IMG/VR virus record: IMGVR_UViG_2744054627_000013
DNA from: a virus
Taxonomy: Duplodnaviria; Heunggongvirae; Uroviricota; Caudoviricetes
Length of the DNA stretch: 7,552 nt
Direction: 5' to 3' (one strand)
The notes under the pieces are model-generated. The model ran no database searches and had not been told where the DNA came from. It was given only the letters and a program-made list of their open reading frames with translations. A program made the translations under genes and the position numbers. Each line of letters begins with the position of its first letter. Position 1 is the stretch's first letter. Below are positions 489 through 6,875 of this stretch, one piece after another.

Positions 489-520
489 ATTGGTGGAGCT
501 GGCGGGAGTTGAACCCGTGT
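489..520 (-). other. ssrA: Attachment-site core: partial copy of the 3' end of the tmRNA gene ssrA (T-arm, acceptor strand and CCA); no ssrA body in the window
   Basis: Reverse complement of 489-520 reads GGACaCGGGTTCAACTCCCGCCAGCTCCACCA, matching the remembered E. coli ssrA 3' terminus (GGACGCGGGTTCAACTCCCGCCAGCTCCACCA) with one mismatch. Sequence to the right (521-860) is AT-rich and not tmRNA-like. Confidence 0.7.
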
Positions 521-732
521 CCATAGTTATGTAATTCATTGAATTTAAATAGCCAAATATTGTTGATTTTACAAGCGGCTCTTTTGCGGAACTTTTTCTG
601 TCCTGTTACTGTCTTACTATTTATTTTAAAATAGTTTCATTTGGAATTAATGGTTTGTGGTTGCAGTTTCGGAGATAGATAGCATTTTTTGCTAAAAAAT
701 ATTTTTATAAAAAAATGTGTGTAAAAATGATG

Positions 733-948: not shown

Positions 949-1764
949 ATGTTGCAGCCAGCAAAAAAAGCATCAGTTATTAGCGCGCGGCTAACTAAAT
1001 ACCTCAAAGATGGAGTGAGGATTGATGACTTTAGCTTTAGAAGGATGTTACGTGAGATTGAAGCACTTAGAGATCCTGTCTCTGAGGACTATCTTTTAGC
1101 GTTGGTCTATGGTGCACATGGCCAAGTGAATGAGGCGATAGGCTTCTTTGAGCGTTCCTTGCAGGTATGCCATAATGAGGTTGTTGCAAAGAATTTTCTT
1201 GTTTTCTTGTCAGATTACGGTACGTTGAAGAAAAGCTTTGAAACAAGCATTAAGCTTGCTGAAAGCTTCATATCCCCGTTTATTTATCTTCAAGCTTATG
1301 AAAACTCCCTCTTTATGGGGAAGATGGCGTTGGCGGAGAAGTATTTCCAGTCATACTCTAAATTGTTCGGAGATAAGGAGCCTGAAAAAATGGACAACAA
1401 TTTTGATGAAGTTGTTTCCCAGGTCGAATCCTTTAAGCAACGTGCCGATCTTTCTGGTTTAGAATATGAACTTATTTTCAATAATGTAGCCAATGTCATG
1501 GATTCTCAGAAGGTTCATCTTTCGGGAATGCGTTTTTATAATATTTCGGAAGAGAAAGTGAATGCGATTGTATTCATGACAAAGTCTTCTGATGCTGAAC
1601 AAATCGCTGATATGAATATTGAGCTTGCTTTTTCAATGGCTGAGCACGATTGTTTAGTCGGTAAAGATTTTGCTGTTTGGTTTGAATGTAAAGACACACA
1701 TATTGAGCAGAATGCTATCTCCGAATTAGGTCTGATTACCCGGAGGGTTGCACATGCCGGTTAA
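949..1764 (+). CDS. Hypothetical protein, 271 aa, first gene of the att-int cargo cassette; predicted largely helical, no domain recognised
   Basis: Long ORF with ATG at 949 preceded by AAGG about 6 nt upstream; ends with in-frame tandem stops TAA-TAG (1762-1767); sits in an AT-rich segment with its own upstream region and downstream terminator. Confidence 0.6.
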   Translation: MLQPAKKASVISARLTKYLKDGVRIDDFSFRRMLREIEALRDPVSEDYLLALVYGAHGQVNEAIGFFERSLQVCHNEVVAKNFLVFLSDYGTLKKSFETSIKLAESFISPFIYLQAYENSLFMGKMALAEKYFQSYSKLFGDKEPEKMDNNFDEVVSQVESFKQRADLSGLEYELIFNNVANVMDSQKVHLSGMRFYNISEEKVNAIVFMTKSSDAEQIADMNIELAFSMAEHDCLVGKDFAVWFECKDTHIEQNAISELGLITRRVAHAG

Positions 1765-2136
1765 TAGTCAAGATTTTCTCGGTTTTGCAAAGACTGTCAT
1801 CAACGTAATGACGAAATCGGCTATCGAAATGCTATAGCAAGATCCTACTATGGCGCTTACCATCATGTCTTGCCTTGTATGGTAAACGGGCCGAAAGACA
1901 GTCATCAGGGGCTAATCAATTATTTGCAGGGCGATGCTTCAAGAGGAAGTGAAGTATATGAAGCTAGATATCTAAAAGGGATTAGTTTTATCCTGAGTCA
2001 ACTTAAAGCTCAGAGGATTGTTGCAGACTATCGACTTGATCAATCGGTCACTTCTAAACAGTCTGAAGTTGCGATTCTAACAACTGAGAGGCTCTTTGCT
2101 AAGTGTACGGAAATGCTTAAATCGAGAGCCTCCTAA
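1754..2136 (+). CDS. Hypothetical protein, second gene of the cargo cassette, about 127 aa if one -1 frameshift between about 1768 and 1837 is corrected; contains an R-x6-HH motif (RSYYGAYHH)
   Basis: ATG at 1754 with strong SD GGAGGG 6 nt upstream, overlapping the last codons of the 271-aa gene. That frame stops at 1835-1837, but the frame carrying the annotated 88-aa ORF (1870-2136) is open back to 1768, consistent with a single-base deletion. The fusion is an inference. Confidence 0.45.
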
Positions 2137-2166: not shown

Positions 2167-3318
2167 TGATATTGCTGGTCGTATTACCGTCATATTCCTT
2201 TAAATATGAACCATAATGACGAAATAACATTTCCGGCCCTTTATGCCCCATTTGAGCTGCAAGCCAAAACAGGTTTGCTCCCGGCTGATATGGCGGGTGG
2301 CGAATGTATGCCTAGTTTGATATGGATTTCTGTAACGAATACCTGCTTTTCGCAATGTTGGCACCCATGCTTTTTCCTGATTGCATCAGCACTTGCCCAA
2401 GGCTTATTGGTCTTTGGATCTTCAAAGACAGTAGTATCCTTCATGAATGTAAATGGCTTCTGATTTATCAGCGCAACATTGCCTCTTCTGTCAGTTCAAC
2501 TTTCCGAGTACCTGCTTTTGTCTTTGTCCCTTTGATAACACCGACAACACTTGCGCTCTGGACATGGGCAGTTTTTCCAACAAAGTCGATATCACGCCAT
2601 CGAAGGCACATAATTCAGAACTACGCAGGCCTGTATGTATAGCGAACCGGAACAGATTTTCCCATTGTTTGTTTCCGGCTGCTGCTAGTAATGCATCAAC
2701 TTCTGCTGGTGATAGCGGATCAACTACGTAGCTGCTTTCTGCTTCTGACTTATCACTTTGGTAGCGCGAAGCTGTTACTAACGATACGGGGTTAATTTGA
2801 AGTACCCCATCGGTCACGGCTTCATCAAGTGCTGACCGCAGGAAAGATAACTGGTTGCGAATTGTTTTTAAGGTCGTTTTCTGATTTTGAATCCACGCTT
2901 TCAGGGTTGCTGGTGTTAATTCACTTGCAGGGCAAATGTGAAGTGAGGCTAACGCACTACGGCATTTTTTATAGCCACCAATCGTAGAGGGTGAAAGTTT
3001 TCTTGTTTCGCAGATTTCAAGATATTCGTCCAGGTACATCTTTACCGTTTTGCCTGCAGCAGCATTACCAAAAATTTTCAAACGAGCAGAACGGGGAAAA
3101 TATTCTGCATAAATGAATGTTCCCCTTTCGATCTTATTATGGATTTCGCCGAGTGTACGCTCGGCGTATTTAATGTTCTTTGGTGTTACTTCCAGATTGG
3201 AAAGCGGCTCACGACATCTAACTCCTTTGTAGGTGAAAGTTATATTGATCGTTTCTCCCTGGCGGTGTTTCCTGATTGTTACGCCGCGCGGTAGTTTGAG
3301 CAGTTTTGTCTGGCCCAT
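2150..3318 (-). pseudogene. int: Tyrosine integrase (lambda/P22-type with N-terminal arm-binding domain), about 390 aa when intact; interrupted by about 4 single-base frameshifts in the C-terminal half as sequenced
   Basis: ATG at 3318; N-terminal 275 aa in one frame (MGQTKLLKLPRGVTIRKH...HTGLRSSELCA). Integrase-like sequence continues in shifted frames: WRDIDFVGKTAHVQSASVVGVIKGTKTKAGTRKVELTEEAM, then ...FEDPKTNKPWASADAIRKK, then KAWVPTLRKAGIRYRNPYQTRHTFAT, then LFWLAAQMGHKGPEMLFRHYGSYLKEY... to TAA at 2150-2152. Catalytic R, K, H-x-x-R, H and Y are all present after correction. One shift is at a T5 run (2371-2375). Confidence 0.8.
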
Positions 3319-3485
3319 TTTGCAACCTCACTAAGATCAATCCACCTCTCCTTAACGCCTTCAACCTTTAAAACCTGAACACCTTCACGCCAAACACCGC
3401 GCTGTACACGTTTGTTTATTGCTTCAGGAGTTTCGCCAGTTTCTTTGCAATAAGTTGAGATAGGAACACAATCGAGGTTCAGCAT
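3279..3485 (-). CDS. xis: Excisionase (lambda Xis-like), 68 aa from the SD-supported start
   Basis: Directly upstream of int and overlapping its 5' end by about 40 nt, as in lambda. ATG at 3485 has GGAGAA about 5 nt upstream; product MLNLDCVPISTYCKETGETPEAINKRVQRGVWREGVQVLKVEG... resembles Xis-family winged-helix proteins. Longer N-terminal extensions (starts at 3497 or 3524) lack an SD. Confidence 0.6.
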   Translation of the reverse strand: MLNLDCVPISTYCKETGETPEAINKRVQRGVWREGVQVLKVEGVKERWIDLSEVAKWARQNCSNYRAA

Positions 3486-3526
3486 ACGTTTCTCCATTAT
3501 CCCGTCTGCACACGGGAGCAACATTA

Positions 3527-4393
3527 TTAACGAATAGTGTCGTTACTTTGAAGTACAGCAAATGCCATTAATACTTCTAAAGTATATCTTCTATAAAATT
3601 TAACAAAACCAACATAGAAAACATAGACGAAGAAAAAGCTAAGCATTATTGAAAGTAAACTATAAAGATAATCACTATGAGTACATAATCGATAAATAAA
3701 GGTTGGAACTGATACCCAAAATGAAATTATAAAGATTAAACATATGTTTCTGCAAAAACCATATAATGCAACATAGTTTTGAATTTTTGTTTGATGTTGT
3801 TTTGAAAACTCATAAACATAATGATATGCCAATCTGAAGAGATCATCATCAAGTCCGTTTTTATCTTGTAATAATTGGCGATTTGTTATGAACTTTTTCT
3901 CATAACCTTCTTTGATCATTAACCATGTTGTATTAGCTAAATGAAATGGTAGAGATTGAGAATAACATAGTTTTTGTGTTATAAAATCCCATAGTATTAT
4001 TGGACATAATACGCATTTGATTATGCGATTCTTTATTTTTGTTTTTTTATCAGCGCTTCTCTCATCGCATGATGGGCTACAAATGCTTTCTGAGGTATCT
4101 ATCAATTTTTTAAATAGATATTTGGAAGGATATCCTAATTCTTTATTCATGTATTTTTCGATAAAAAATGCTGACGTGATAGAAATAAAATGTCCAGCTA
4201 TATAAGATATAATAACTATTGAAGCGTAGTTCAAAATGCCAAAGATTTGACTTTGACCTCTGAGCAATTCACTTAAGTCAATAACAATATCTAGATCGAA
4301 TGTCAAACCACAGAAATACATTAATAGGATAAAAAAACCACCTGGTATTAAATATCCAAGAAAGTCATAGAATGAGAATGGATTTTGATTCAT
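3527..4393 (-). CDS. Hypothetical integral membrane protein, about 288 aa with about 5 predicted transmembrane helices, in a strongly AT-rich moron
   Basis: Long minus-strand ORF; ATG at 4393 preceded by GGAGA about 6 nt upstream (the TTG at 4417 in the ORF track is a less likely start). Hydrophobic stretches such as FFILLMYFCGLTF, IFGILNYASIVIISYIAGHFISITSAFFI, LIFIISFWVSVPTFIY and LLSIMLSFFFVYVFYVGFV. Composition is much more AT-rich than the flanking genes. Confidence 0.6.
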   Translation of the reverse strand: MNQNPFSFYDFLGYLIPGGFFILLMYFCGLTFDLDIVIDLSELLRGQSQIFGILNYASIVIISYIAGHFISITSAFFIEKYMNKELGYPSKYLFKKLIDTSESICSPSCDERSADKKTKIKNRIIKCVLCPIILWDFITQKLCYSQSLPFHLANTTWLMIKEGYEKKFITNRQLLQDKNGLDDDLFRLAYHYVYEFSKQHQTKIQNYVALYGFCRNICLIFIISFWVSVPTFIYRLCTHSDYLYSLLSIMLSFFFVYVFYVGFVKFYRRYTLEVLMAFAVLQSNDTIR

Positions 4394-4501
4394 TGTTGCT
4401 CTCCAATAATTTTTCAATTTGTAATATAACCTATATCTATATGTTAATAAATTACTTATATGTTCTTTTATGGCAGAGTTTGAATTCGTACGTGCTGATT
4501 T

Positions 4502-5024
4502 TTACGACTCAGTTAACTCTTTAAAGCGTTCCATAAACATCCCATAGGTATGGCCTGGCGACAGTGGAATAACTTTGAACATCTCTGTTGCCGGGATACC
4601 TTCCAGTACGGGCCAGAAAGAGCCATCATCAAGCCCGAGATCGCGGCGTTCGGTTGCCAGCATGATGAGATCGGCATATTTCACGGGCGTACTCATAACC
4701 GGGGTAACCCGTATTTCTCACGGATTACGGCGTCTATTTTTCTTCCATCCGTTTATAGTCAGGAAGAAGGCGTTTCAGTGGAGCCGGGATGTCCTGGCAA
4801 TACGCTTCTGTTGCATCATGCATTAACGCTTCAAAAGCAAATTCCTGCGGTACCAGCTGGCTGCAAAGCACCGCATGTTGGGCGACGCTGTAGAAGTGTG
4901 AAAGATGGCCGGCAAAGCGACAGATATTTGAAAGGGAAACCGCGATATCGTTAATATCGATGTTGTCTTTATTTATCCTGTCATAATAAAAATGTTTCCC
5001 GGAAAAAGTTTTAATAAATGACAT
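4502..5024 (-). pseudogene. yfdR: HD-domain phosphohydrolase, YfdR-like (5'-deoxynucleotidase family); split by two single-base homopolymer deletions as sequenced
   Basis: N-terminal part (ORF ending 4734) carries the HD signature region (...RFAGHLSHFYSVAQHAVLCSQLV...HDATEAY...) and ends ...KRMEEK-stop at a T5 run (4737-4741). The C-terminal part (4696-4502, MSTPVKYADLIMLATERRDLGLDDGSFWP...) is in another frame, restored after a G4 run at 4701-4704. ATG at 5024 has GGAG 6 nt upstream; a GTG at 5036 is an alternative start. Gene name is from memory of the CPS-53 yfdPQR module. Confidence 0.65.
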
Positions 5025-5157
5025 TTTGTTCTCCACTGTTTTATATGCGCTGCACCGCGCTGAATTTTGGTTAAAGAAAACCCTCCTCGCCTTCAGGCAT
5101 TATTGAGTCAATTACGTTTCCATAAATGCCCCCGCAGGGGCATTTGCAGTAATGAAA

Positions 5158-5982
5158 TCAGGCGGTGAAAGTCCCAATAAAGGTTTCTACTTTGCTGTCC
5201 TTGAATTTCTCAACAAGCAGATCACGAAATTCGTTAGCCATATCTTCCTGCACCGCTTCCAGCTGAATAATGCGCAGAACCAGTACAGGACGATCGCCAG
5301 TGATAATGCTGAGGCGTAATTTAAACGGACGTTCTTTCAGACCTTCAAACGGAACGCATTTAAACTCAAATGCCACTGGCATAATGTCTTTGGTCTTCGC
5401 TTCGACAGACTCCATCAGGGAGCGTTTGCCGCTGAAGTCATTATCTTCAAAATCAGCAGTCTGGTTTGCTTCAATCGTGATTTTACGGACCGCCGCAGCC
5501 GCTTTTGTTGCCTGAATGGTGTCACCATTAGCATCAAAGCCCACAAGGTAGTCGGCCCAGTCTTCGATCCATTCTGCCAGTGACTTCTGGGAGTTACGCT
5601 CGCCGTTAACAGACAACAGAGCAGAGAACGGTGCTGTCTTTTTCAGTTTGAGAGTGGCAGTGTTATCTGCGTGACCTGGCTCATCAATAGTACCCAGGTT
5701 AAGCACACTGACGGCACGCATATTATCGGCATCGATAAAGCAGCGGGTGCCTTCATCTGCAAGATCTTTAGAATAACGGGTAAAATCATCGATGCTGGCA
5801 GTGGAAAGTGCACCACGGAAACGGAAGCGATTTAAATTAAATTTTTCCAGATCATGAATGCGGAAATTCTCAGGCAATGCCACAGCATCGGCACCAATCT
5901 TACTGATAATTTCATTAACACCCTGAGCAGAAATAAGGGCATGGATTTGATTAATTGCGGTTGCGTCTAAGTTCTGAGACAT
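5158..5982 (-). CDS. yfdQ: YfdQ-like phage early protein (DUF2303-type), 274 aa
   Basis: Intact ORF with ATG at 5982 and GAGGA about 6 nt upstream; size and position directly upstream of the yfdR-like gene match the CPS-53 yfdQ-yfdR arrangement as remembered. Confidence 0.7.
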
Positions 5983-6047
5983 AATAAGTCCTCACTATAT
6001 AAAGATATTCAGTGATGAGATAAATAATCAGTTTATTACGAACGATA

Positions 6048-6410
6048 TTAACGACCTGCTGCGCGGAGTTTTCCGTCAGGTTCACCGGCAAGAGTCAGTA
6101 ATTGTCCCTGGTCTTCCTGCAGAATAGTCAGGCGACCACCGCGATTGACATACATCGGCGTTTCGGTGGTGTCTTCTTCGGAAATTTTCCCGCGGTTAGT
6201 TGGGCGAACATATGAGAGTTTGTGTTTGATTTTCACACGGTTCTCATCAAACGGTTCGATTTCCAGGTTGAGCGAGACCTTACCTTTGGTTTTCGTGTTC
6301 ATCACACCGGAAGCGACTTCACTGAGAACTGCGCCGATTTTGGTTTCAAATACGCCGCCGTCCAGCTCCCCGATAAATGCCTGCACATCAGTACTGCGTT
6401 CGCTAGCCAT
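6048..6410 (-). CDS. Phage early protein, 120 aa, possibly YfdP-like by size and synteny; first gene of the minus-strand early module in this window
   Basis: ATG at 6410 with GAGGAG about 7 nt upstream (MASERSTDVQAFIGELDGGVFETKIG...). The ORF track's longer 174-aa version starts in G+C-rich sequence without an RBS and has an Arg/Pro/His-rich, non-protein-like N-terminus. Confidence 0.65.
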   Translation of the reverse strand: MASERSTDVQAFIGELDGGVFETKIGAVLSEVASGVMNTKTKGKVSLNLEIEPFDENRVKIKHKLSYVRPTNRGKISEEDTTETPMYVNRGGRLTILQEDQGQLLTLAGEPDGKLRAAGR

Positions 6411-6875
6411 TTTGCTGCTCCTCATCATATCGACCCTGCAAGGTCGGTTAGTTTCTCCACAAAACAGAGAAGAACACCTGCGGTGACTGCCGCCCGGATG
6501 GATTGGGTTATGAGCCGTCGTCCGGTGATGCTCTTCTCTGTTTTGTAAAAGGACGGTACCAGCCGGAAGCAAGGGTACAAGCTGGTACCGCCAGGACTAC
6601 ACACAGCATAAAGTTGTGGTGCCGGGTGCCTCCCGGTGCCTGGCGAAGGTTGCACACCAGGCGGGTGGGTATCCACAGAAGGTCGACTGTCAGCCTCAAC
6701 CTTAACCCGCGTGCGCTGAGCCGCATTCACCACAACGCTAAGGATTCTCTCTGGTTGAAAATACTTAGCTGTTATGTGCCTGCTTTTAGCCACATCAGGC
6801 GAGGTGGACCTGGTTATTCCCCAACAACAAGGATTCGGTTAATCTGGTTATCCCCAACAACGCAAAAGGAAAGAA
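6411..6875. other. G+C-rich, hairpin-dense non-coding block between divergent genes; candidate structured RNA or complex regulatory region
   Basis: No ORF with a credible start or protein-like composition. 13-bp inverted repeat AAAACAGAGAAGA (6461-6473) / TCTTCTCTGTTTT (6532-6544) encloses 58 nt; 12-bp stem GACGGTACCAGC (6552-6563) / GCTGGTACCGCC (6581-6592) with one mismatch; further CCGGG/CCCGG hairpin at 6622-6636. Confidence 0.35.
6810..6861 (+). promoter_or_regulatory. Two direct repeats CTGGTTAT(T)CCCCAACAAC spaced 34 bp apart, immediately upstream of the + strand small gene; candidate operator or iteron sites
   Basis: Copies at 6810-6828 and 6844-6861, with a related CTGGTT at 6751-6756; the second copy ends 15 bp before the ATG at 6876. 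Confidence 0.35.

Follow-up and report, generated by a model that had tools for sequence, protein, structure and literature searches.

Csx27 is an accessory membrane protein of type VI-B1 CRISPR-Cas systems (Smargon et al., 2017), and it represses Cas13b interference in E. coli by up to 1e5-fold. For the wider Csx27 family, the accounts in PMC7642515 and PMC11662929 report, as far as those accounts go, a computational proposal by Makarova et al. (2019) in which the proteins are single-stranded DNA (ssDNA) channels with contexts in natural competence, ubiquitin-like systems and WYL proteins. Here we analyse a 7,552-nt stretch of E. coli prophage DNA (IMG/VR record IMGVR_UViG_2744054627_000013; 'the window', that is, the whole stretch, whose positions serve as coordinates throughout) and, within it, a gene for a 288-aa membrane protein located between the excisionase gene xis and a yfdR-like gene. 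Profile comparisons indicate that the protein is a remote homologue of Csx27, and not Csx27 proper. What appears to be new here is a CRISPR-independent, phage-borne member of a Csx27-like membrane family, with no structural relatives in the databases searched.

The 288-aa protein and its relation to Csx27

The gene occupies the minus strand, in an open reading frame (ORF) that spans positions 3527-4417. The plausible start codon is the ATG at 4393-4391, which is preceded, with a 7-nt spacer, by a GGAG ribosome-binding site (4404-4401), and which gives a coding sequence at 3527-4393, stop codon included. The encoded protein is identical to RefSeq WP_001075212.1, labelled 'hypothetical protein', and matches PHROG 12528, labelled 'unknown function', with an E-value of 8e-174. 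A 108-nt leader (4394-4501, minus strand) extends from the stop codon of the yfdR-like gene to the ATG and contains the GGAG site. The flanking genes are on the same strand: upstream, the yfdR-like gene for a 5'-deoxynucleotidase (4502-5036; Pfam YfbR-like and HD_3, PHROG and RefSeq matches), and downstream, xis (3279-3485; PHROG 2917, E 8e-45; a 207-nt coding sequence in RefSeq). The ORF list, the ribosome-binding site and RefSeq agree with an earlier, sequence-only reading of this stretch, which had placed an ORF of roughly 288 aa between these two genes. Two opposite-strand ORFs within the gene (4017-4205 and 4372-4524) are short and unsupported, and we dismissed them.

The results of profile searches connect the protein to Csx27. 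The PADLOC Csx27 model matches the window protein with an E-value of 1.4e-5, aligning aa 6-268 with model positions 4-188 of 206; the match starts at an N-terminal motif that the two share and covers nearly the whole model. In an alignment of 129 diverse members of the family, on which all conservation figures below are based, 72 match the same model at E ≤ 1e-3 (best 2.2e-10), and 15 match tm_4, a type VI-B-associated model. The NCBIfam Csx27 equivalog, NF040557, gives 14.9 bits against a cut-off of 65 and aligns only with residues 5-43, that is, with the N-terminus and first transmembrane helix; it is because this score lies far under the cut-off that we exclude Csx27 proper. Csx27 has four predicted transmembrane helices, as does the window protein. 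The Csx27 models comprise about 206-223 positions, as compared to 288 aa here, and the cytoplasmic domain is larger here; unlike Csx27, moreover, the window family resides in temperate phages and on scattered chromosomal islands. No cas13b gene or CRISPR array is found nearby, the window and its E. coli relatives showing prophage genes only, and none of the large neighbours of family members that were tested as Cas13b matched.

The sequence-only reading had recognised no family for the protein, but a family exists: PHROG 12528, together with a large family that has no name and is a distant relative of Csx27. Among 1.84 billion representative proteins, a profile search identified 958 clusters (at 50% identity) with E ≤ 1e-3, including 210 with E ≤ 1e-30, and, among the 150 best matches listed, most are full length, at 260-320 aa. 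The family spans at least 12 phyla, including Proteobacteria, Bacteroidota, Bacillota, Chloroflexota, Acidobacteriota, Gemmatimonadota, Spirochaetota and Verrucomicrobiota. The window protein itself is left unassigned by Pfam and NCBIfam, Pfam gives no consistent family over its 129 relatives, and a literature search for WP_001075212 returned no papers. Nor do Pfam, NCBIfam, PHROG, a profile search of PDB chains or Foldseek reveal homology to a housekeeping transporter, a holin or other lysis protein, or a structural protein.

All members share an N-terminal motif, QNPFSxYDFLGYxxPG (QNPFSxYDFLGYxIPG at codons 3-18 of the window gene; 4340-4387, minus strand). Eight residues are invariant (F6, Y14, Y64, G67, S74, E79, R215 and K265), and a larger number are at least 90% conserved: in the N-terminal part, P5, S7, Y9, D10, F11, L12, G13, P17 and G18, and in the remainder, H68, Y88-P89-S90, P131, H191, H200, K203, N206-G212, F263, F266, E273 and M276. 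The conserved residues all map to the inner leaflet or the cytoplasmic face of the membrane. This placement points to a general intracellular ligand or substrate and argues against periplasmic recognition of phage parts.

Hydropathy, an AlphaFold2 model and charge counts agree on four transmembrane helices, at about aa 13-33, 53-77, 208-233 and 243-264. The model, which was built from the 129-sequence alignment (pLDDT 90.4, pTM 0.89), places helices at aa 8-31 and 52-86 around the first two of these. The first transmembrane helix, a short acidic periplasmic loop (aa 34-52) and the second transmembrane helix, which carries Y64, G67, H68 and S74, are encoded at 4163-4357. They are followed by a basic, all-helical cytoplasmic domain of about 130 residues (aa 78-207, with E79, Y88-P89-S90, H191, H200, K203 and N206; 3773-4162), by the third and fourth transmembrane helices, which are joined by a periplasmic turn of 7-9 aa and preceded by the motif NYVALYGFxR with invariant R215 (3602-3772), and by a cytoplasmic C-terminal helix with the motif KFYRRxxLE, in which K265 is invariant and E273 and M276 are conserved (3530-3601; all on the minus strand). 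Averaged over the family, the central domain contains 18.4 Lys and Arg residues vs. 12.7 Asp and Glu residues, and the C-terminal tail 5.0 vs. 2.9; the other two loops, at 17 and 7 residues, are acidic or neutral and variable. The basic central domain and tail are thus assigned to the cytoplasm and the short acidic or neutral loops to the periplasm, and the protein is predicted to be a stand-alone inner-membrane protein with both termini in the cytoplasm and very short periplasmic loops.

A fifth hydrophobic element lies within the central domain (aa 123-138; 3980-4027, minus strand). In the AlphaFold2 model it forms two helices (116-128 and 130-139) broken at conserved Pro131, and across the family it has a mean hydropathy of 2.19 and Lys/Arg-rich segments on both sides. 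Because the element has only 16 residues and basic segments on both flanks, a re-entrant hairpin is likelier than a fifth span. Accordingly, of the 'about five hydrophobic helices' proposed from the sequence, five hydrophobic elements stand, as four transmembrane spans and a probable re-entrant hairpin. Searches for structural relatives returned no significant match: a sequence-profile search of PDB chains gave chance matches only (growth hormone, E 0.013; a designed protein, E 1.5), and Foldseek with the whole model against PDB and the viral database BFVD gave nothing at E ≤ 0.001, including no similarity to transporters, lysis proteins or structural proteins.

Distribution and genomic context

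The gene differs in composition from its neighbours. The coding sequence has a GC content of 28.4% (34%, 30% and 21.5% at the first, second and third codon positions), as compared to 46% for xis (41% at third positions), 46% for yfdQ (45% at third positions), 43-50% for the pieces of yfdR and 41.7% for the whole window; the leader has 26%. The low value at third positions indicates that the bias of the gene is not merely an effect of amino-acid composition. Across the family, the genes are AT-richer than their flanks in 75 of 76 genomes, by a mean of 10 GC points, as would fit persistent horizontal transfer.

The gene is also patchily distributed. It is carried, as a single copy, by 205 of 5,426 complete E. 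coli genomes (matches covering at least 80% of the query, 177 of them at least 99% identical), whereas the adjacent 3' end of yfdR is present in 2,959, that is, in more than half. The window allele accounts for about 179 genomes and a 78%-identical allele for 24. In related prophages the slot is filled differently: strain elppa10 shares the xis and yfdR flanks but has two small unrelated ORFs between them, and ECAMP047 and O157:H7 2159 have a 120-aa protein together with an exonuclease, a methyltransferase or other early genes. The gene is thus not uniform across relatives, and the description of it as accessory and compositionally foreign, made from the sequence and to be checked in related prophages for variable cargo, holds.

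Comparison of the two E. coli alleles gives a ratio of nonsynonymous to synonymous substitution rates (dN/dS) of 0.23, which indicates that the gene is under purifying selection and selectively maintained. The alleles are mosaic: the 3' end of yfdR, the leader and the first 165 nt of the coding sequence are about 100% identical, and the remaining coding sequence is about 78% identical, with a recombination breakpoint inside the gene (window 4229-4700 compared with 5630-6165 of locus L088). We considered the complete identity of the leader as a sign of a regulatory element and rejected it, since the leader is part of a longer identical block that runs from yfdR into the coding sequence; the shared block points instead to recombination between prophages. 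Between the stop codon and xis, a hairpin (CCCGT-GTGCAG-ACGGG; 3501-3516, minus strand) and the xis ribosome-binding site (3492-3495) are kept at the locus of the 78%-identical allele, and the excisionases downstream are unrelated at the two loci (xis of PHROG 2917 vs. PrtN). The hairpin and ribosome-binding site, on this comparison, mark the downstream edge of the exchanged cassette.

The position of the gene recurs in other prophages. Homologues in Enterobacteriaceae (47-100% identity) are almost always found at the prophage end with excisionase and integrase genes directly downstream, in association with at least four recombination modules: integrases with an Arm-DNA-bind_2 domain, lambda-type integrases with an Arm-DNA-bind_1 domain, Phage_int_M-type integrases with a DUF4224 excisionase, and a PrtN-type excisionase alone. 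Klebsiella phage P7641 has the same arrangement upstream of xis-int. The same family thus recurs directly upstream of xis-int in several lambdoid lineages, and the view of the slot as random cargo space does not survive.

A different context is observed in P2-like phages. A 42%-identical homologue with a GTG start (Escherichia phage vB_EcoM-705R2; locus L087, 5001-5843) lies in the cos-proximal hotspot between the gpA and gpQ sides, and its flanking genes are on the opposite strand. A recombinase and a small protein with a plasmid-partition annotation are encoded in this hotspot as well. The gpA-gpQ hotspot has been shown experimentally to hold anti-phage systems (Rousset et al., PMC9122126).

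All 80 loci recovered from the genome collection are on chromosomal or metagenome-assembled-genome (MAG) contigs, and none is a phage record. A few lie in defence loci: a family member follows hsdM-hsdS in a type I restriction-modification (R-M) operon in Fulvivirga, another precedes an HsdR-like gene in a type I R-M operon in an Acidobacteria MAG, and a third adjoins an MkoA/C-like helicase in a Clostridiaceae MAG (L019, 5161-8002; L043, 1001-3538; L029, 1276-3999). The closest non-prophage homologue, in Serratia proteamaculans (39% identity; L006, 8917-10005), is followed 37 bp downstream by a gene for a 363-aa nuclease-like protein whose N-terminus matches the PADLOC models for PDC-M68A, a CBASS endonuclease effector and SduA; the pair may be a two-gene variant of the system. 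Other non-phage homologues adjoin nrdAB, glycosyltransferases, epimerases, or WecG-type or other polysaccharide genes. Among neighbour families, integrases occur most often. When ORFs within 5 kb in the 80 genomes were clustered by BLAST, no cluster was present in more than four loci, and Pfam and PADLOC scans of 259 neighbours from these genomes (136 immediate and 123 second neighbours) revealed no conserved partner, from which it follows that the protein probably works alone.

Possible functions

The reading we favour, tentatively, is that the 288-aa protein is a stand-alone membrane phage-exclusion factor. According to this reading, the protein would act alone at the cytoplasmic face of the inner membrane, where a cluster of invariant polar and aromatic residues (the QNPFSxYDFLGY motif, H68, S74, E79, H191, H200, K203, N206, R215, K265 and E273) would bind a general cue or substrate; binding would either gate the passage of nucleic acid from an infecting phage (superinfection exclusion) or lead to perturbation of the membrane (abortive infection), and either outcome would shield the lysogen and its prophage from competing phages. 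Of the functions suggested from the sequence (superinfection exclusion, abortive infection or surface modification), genomic context weakly favours exclusion, the points counted for it being the gpA-gpQ hotspot, the type I R-M operons, the MkoA/C-like helicase, the nuclease-like neighbour in Serratia and the frequency of integrases among the neighbours. Also counted in favour of the reading are the accessory status and foreign composition of the gene, the signs of function (dN/dS, invariant motifs and family size), the membrane architecture and the link to Csx27.

Several observations weigh against exclusion. The main weakness lies in expression signals. The leader contains no sigma-70 site with at least 9 of 12 matches, in a consensus scan that cannot exclude weak or non-canonical promoters; no intrinsic terminator is called after position 3527, where the hairpin at 3501-3516 has only 5 bp and no T-run; and scans for promoters and terminators in the leader, and in the region upstream of the P2-like homologue, yielded no more sites than shuffled sequence. 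With neither signal found, transcription from the early-left operon could run through the gene into xis and int, and the lambdoid copies may be transcribed from the early-left promoter alone and be silent in the lysogen. In addition, PADLOC-DB 2.0, in which only Csx27 and tm_4 match, and PHROGs give no match to a known exclusion or abortive-infection model; defence genes are a minority of the neighbours in non-phage genomes; Csx27, the sole tested relative, lowers immunity when expressed with Cas13b; and the cytoplasmic polar cluster conserved across phyla would also fit an enzyme.

The weakness in expression signals is a strength of the alternative that the gene serves the phage early in lytic growth, as the last gene of the early-left operon, by damping a host function or immune effector from the membrane, with no protection of the lysogen. 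The gene has the same orientation as yfdP-yfdQ-yfdR and xis-int, the family invariably comes last before xis-int in lambdoid prophages, whichever of the integrase or excisionase types follows, and the repression of Cas13b interference by Csx27 offers a precedent for damping. We nevertheless judge this alternative unlikely: the P2-like homologue is flanked by opposite-strand genes in a defence hotspot, the collection loci are on chromosomal or MAG contigs and not in phage records, a few of them inside R-M operons, and E. coli has no type VI CRISPR system for the protein to regulate. That the protein is instead a membrane enzyme for lysogenic conversion, which would alter the cell surface by modifying, at the cytoplasmic leaflet, a lipid or a lipid-linked precursor of the envelope, is distinctly unlikely in our estimation. 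Pfam, PDB profile and Foldseek searches detect no resemblance to any transferase or hydrolase family in sequence or fold, polysaccharide genes make up only a few percent of neighbours, with none conserved, and periplasmic exposure is minimal, although the invariant or near-invariant His, Glu, Asp, Ser, Asn, Arg and Lys residues do cluster at the membrane-cytoplasm interface, the predicted re-entrant hairpin would suit an enzyme, and some non-phage homologues do adjoin glycosyltransferase, epimerase and WecG-type genes. Conversion genes such as gtrABC and oac typically adjoin int and att, which counts in favour of conversion.

The computational proposal for the Csx27 family suggests another alternative, namely that the protein forms an oligomeric nucleic-acid conduit for DNA uptake or export. 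The Csx27 homology, remote but consistent, and the basic cytoplasmic domain agree with the ssDNA-channel hypothesis of Makarova et al. (2019), as it is relayed in PMC7642515 and PMC11662929. In each neighbour set, however, the 25 Pfam families listed as most frequent include none for competence (DprA, ComEC, ComF), ubiquitin-like or WYL proteins, under ordinary conditions E. coli does not undergo natural transformation, and the monomer model has no evident pore; we consider a conduit improbable. Very improbable, finally, is an inert, AT-rich remnant that is silenced by H-NS and hitch-hikes with the prophage. A very low GC content makes the gene a likely H-NS target, and the failure to find a promoter fits silencing, but the dN/dS ratio and the conservation of motifs across phyla speak against it, as does the integrity of the gene: the ORF is full length wherever a complete copy is seen, the 205 E. 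coli genomes match at least 80% of the query, and the window copy is untouched by the single-base deletions that break neighbouring genes.

If the favoured reading of phage exclusion is correct, the gene represents a new single-gene defence or superinfection-exclusion mechanism, carried by common pathogenic lineages (UTI89, S88, APEC O1 and IHE3034) and by the type strain ATCC 11775, and a large family without a Pfam model becomes accessible in a tractable host. A broader form of the proposal, which we regard as possible but doubtful, is that the gene is the E. coli representative of a single-gene membrane immunity module that extends across the at least 12 phyla, with a fold that has no solved relative, and that senses or gates nucleic acid at the cytoplasmic face; in that case work in E. 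coli would also reveal what Csx27 does. Csx27 has been mechanistically unexplained since 2017, and a phage-borne E. coli relative would make its basic activity directly testable.

Prophage setting and comparison with known systems

The window, which matches E. coli strain E14, the closest complete genome, over its full length with 99.5% identity, is the left arm of a lambdoid prophage of E. coli. The region round the gene is 100% identical in ATCC 11775, UTI89, S88, APEC O1, IHE3034 and many others. Read along the plus strand, the window begins with the 3' end of a ypjA-type autotransporter gene (5-307), followed by a fragment matching the 3' end of tmRNA (491-538, minus strand; Rfam RF00023, E 1.9e-5, under the gathering score), which is probably an ssrA-derived attachment core at the prophage boundary. 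Two cargo ORFs on the plus strand (949-1764 and 1870-2136) come next, and past them, on the minus strand, are the integrase gene, xis, the 288-aa gene and homologues of yfdR, yfdQ and yfdP. In the ATCC 11775 prophage the lysis cassette is about 11 kb from the gene.

The cargo ORFs define a second variable slot (949-2136, plus strand), between the integrase gene and the attachment site. In the window this slot holds a 271-aa protein (PHROG 17809, with a weak TPR match) and a smaller ORF with a weak HEPN_IX match (PADLOC E 0.01); ATCC 11775 and elppa10 have a STAS-like protein and two hypothetical proteins there instead. The second slot could be another accessory or defence cassette. Relative to E14, the window has 16 single-base deletions (290, 792, 1788, 2279, 2370, 2473, 2604, 4700, 4736, 5098, 6514, 6546, 6869, 7073, 7522 and 7536), which split the integrase gene, yfdR (4700 and 4736) and other genes, and none of which is in the 288-aa gene; they look like errors of long-read assembly and not like genuine pseudogenes. 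A match to the gammaproteobacterial small RNA STnc100 (6544-6766, minus strand; 39.4 bits, gathering score 47; E 5.5e-6) is located upstream of the yfdP-like gene, where it overlaps ORFs with frameshifts in the window. The Rfam scan of the whole window gave no match in or near the 288-aa gene.

Among known systems other than Csx27, three invite comparison. Temperate phages encode single-gene membrane exclusion proteins such as SieA and SieB of P22, RexB of lambda and Sie2009 of lactococcal phages, as T4 does with Imm. Like the window protein, these are small inner-membrane accessory proteins encoded near an integration module or hotspot with no obvious partner. PADLOC and PHROGs detect no similarity between them and the window protein, and they are phage-restricted, whereas the window family is found in at least 12 phyla. 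The stator proteins MotA, PomA, ExbB and TolQ, and ZorA of Zorya, have the same layout as the window protein (a large cytoplasmic domain between two pairs of transmembrane helices, and a cytoplasmic tail) and a similar size. Proteins of this type recur among weak Foldseek matches only (E ≥ 1, TM-score about 0.2; not significant), and there is neither sequence similarity nor a MotB- or ExbD-like partner gene, so that the likeness is one of layout only.

The third comparison is with the lambdoid morons described by Hendrix and colleagues, the class to which the sequence-only reading had assigned the gene. The window gene is, likewise, patchy in its presence, deviant in composition and located between conserved modules, and to this extent the assignment is apt; a classical moron has a flanking promoter and terminator, and neither was found for the window gene by consensus scan. 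Unlike a classical moron, moreover, the window family recurs at the same position in several lineages, which makes the last position before xis-int in lambdoid prophages a place to seek further accessory functions.

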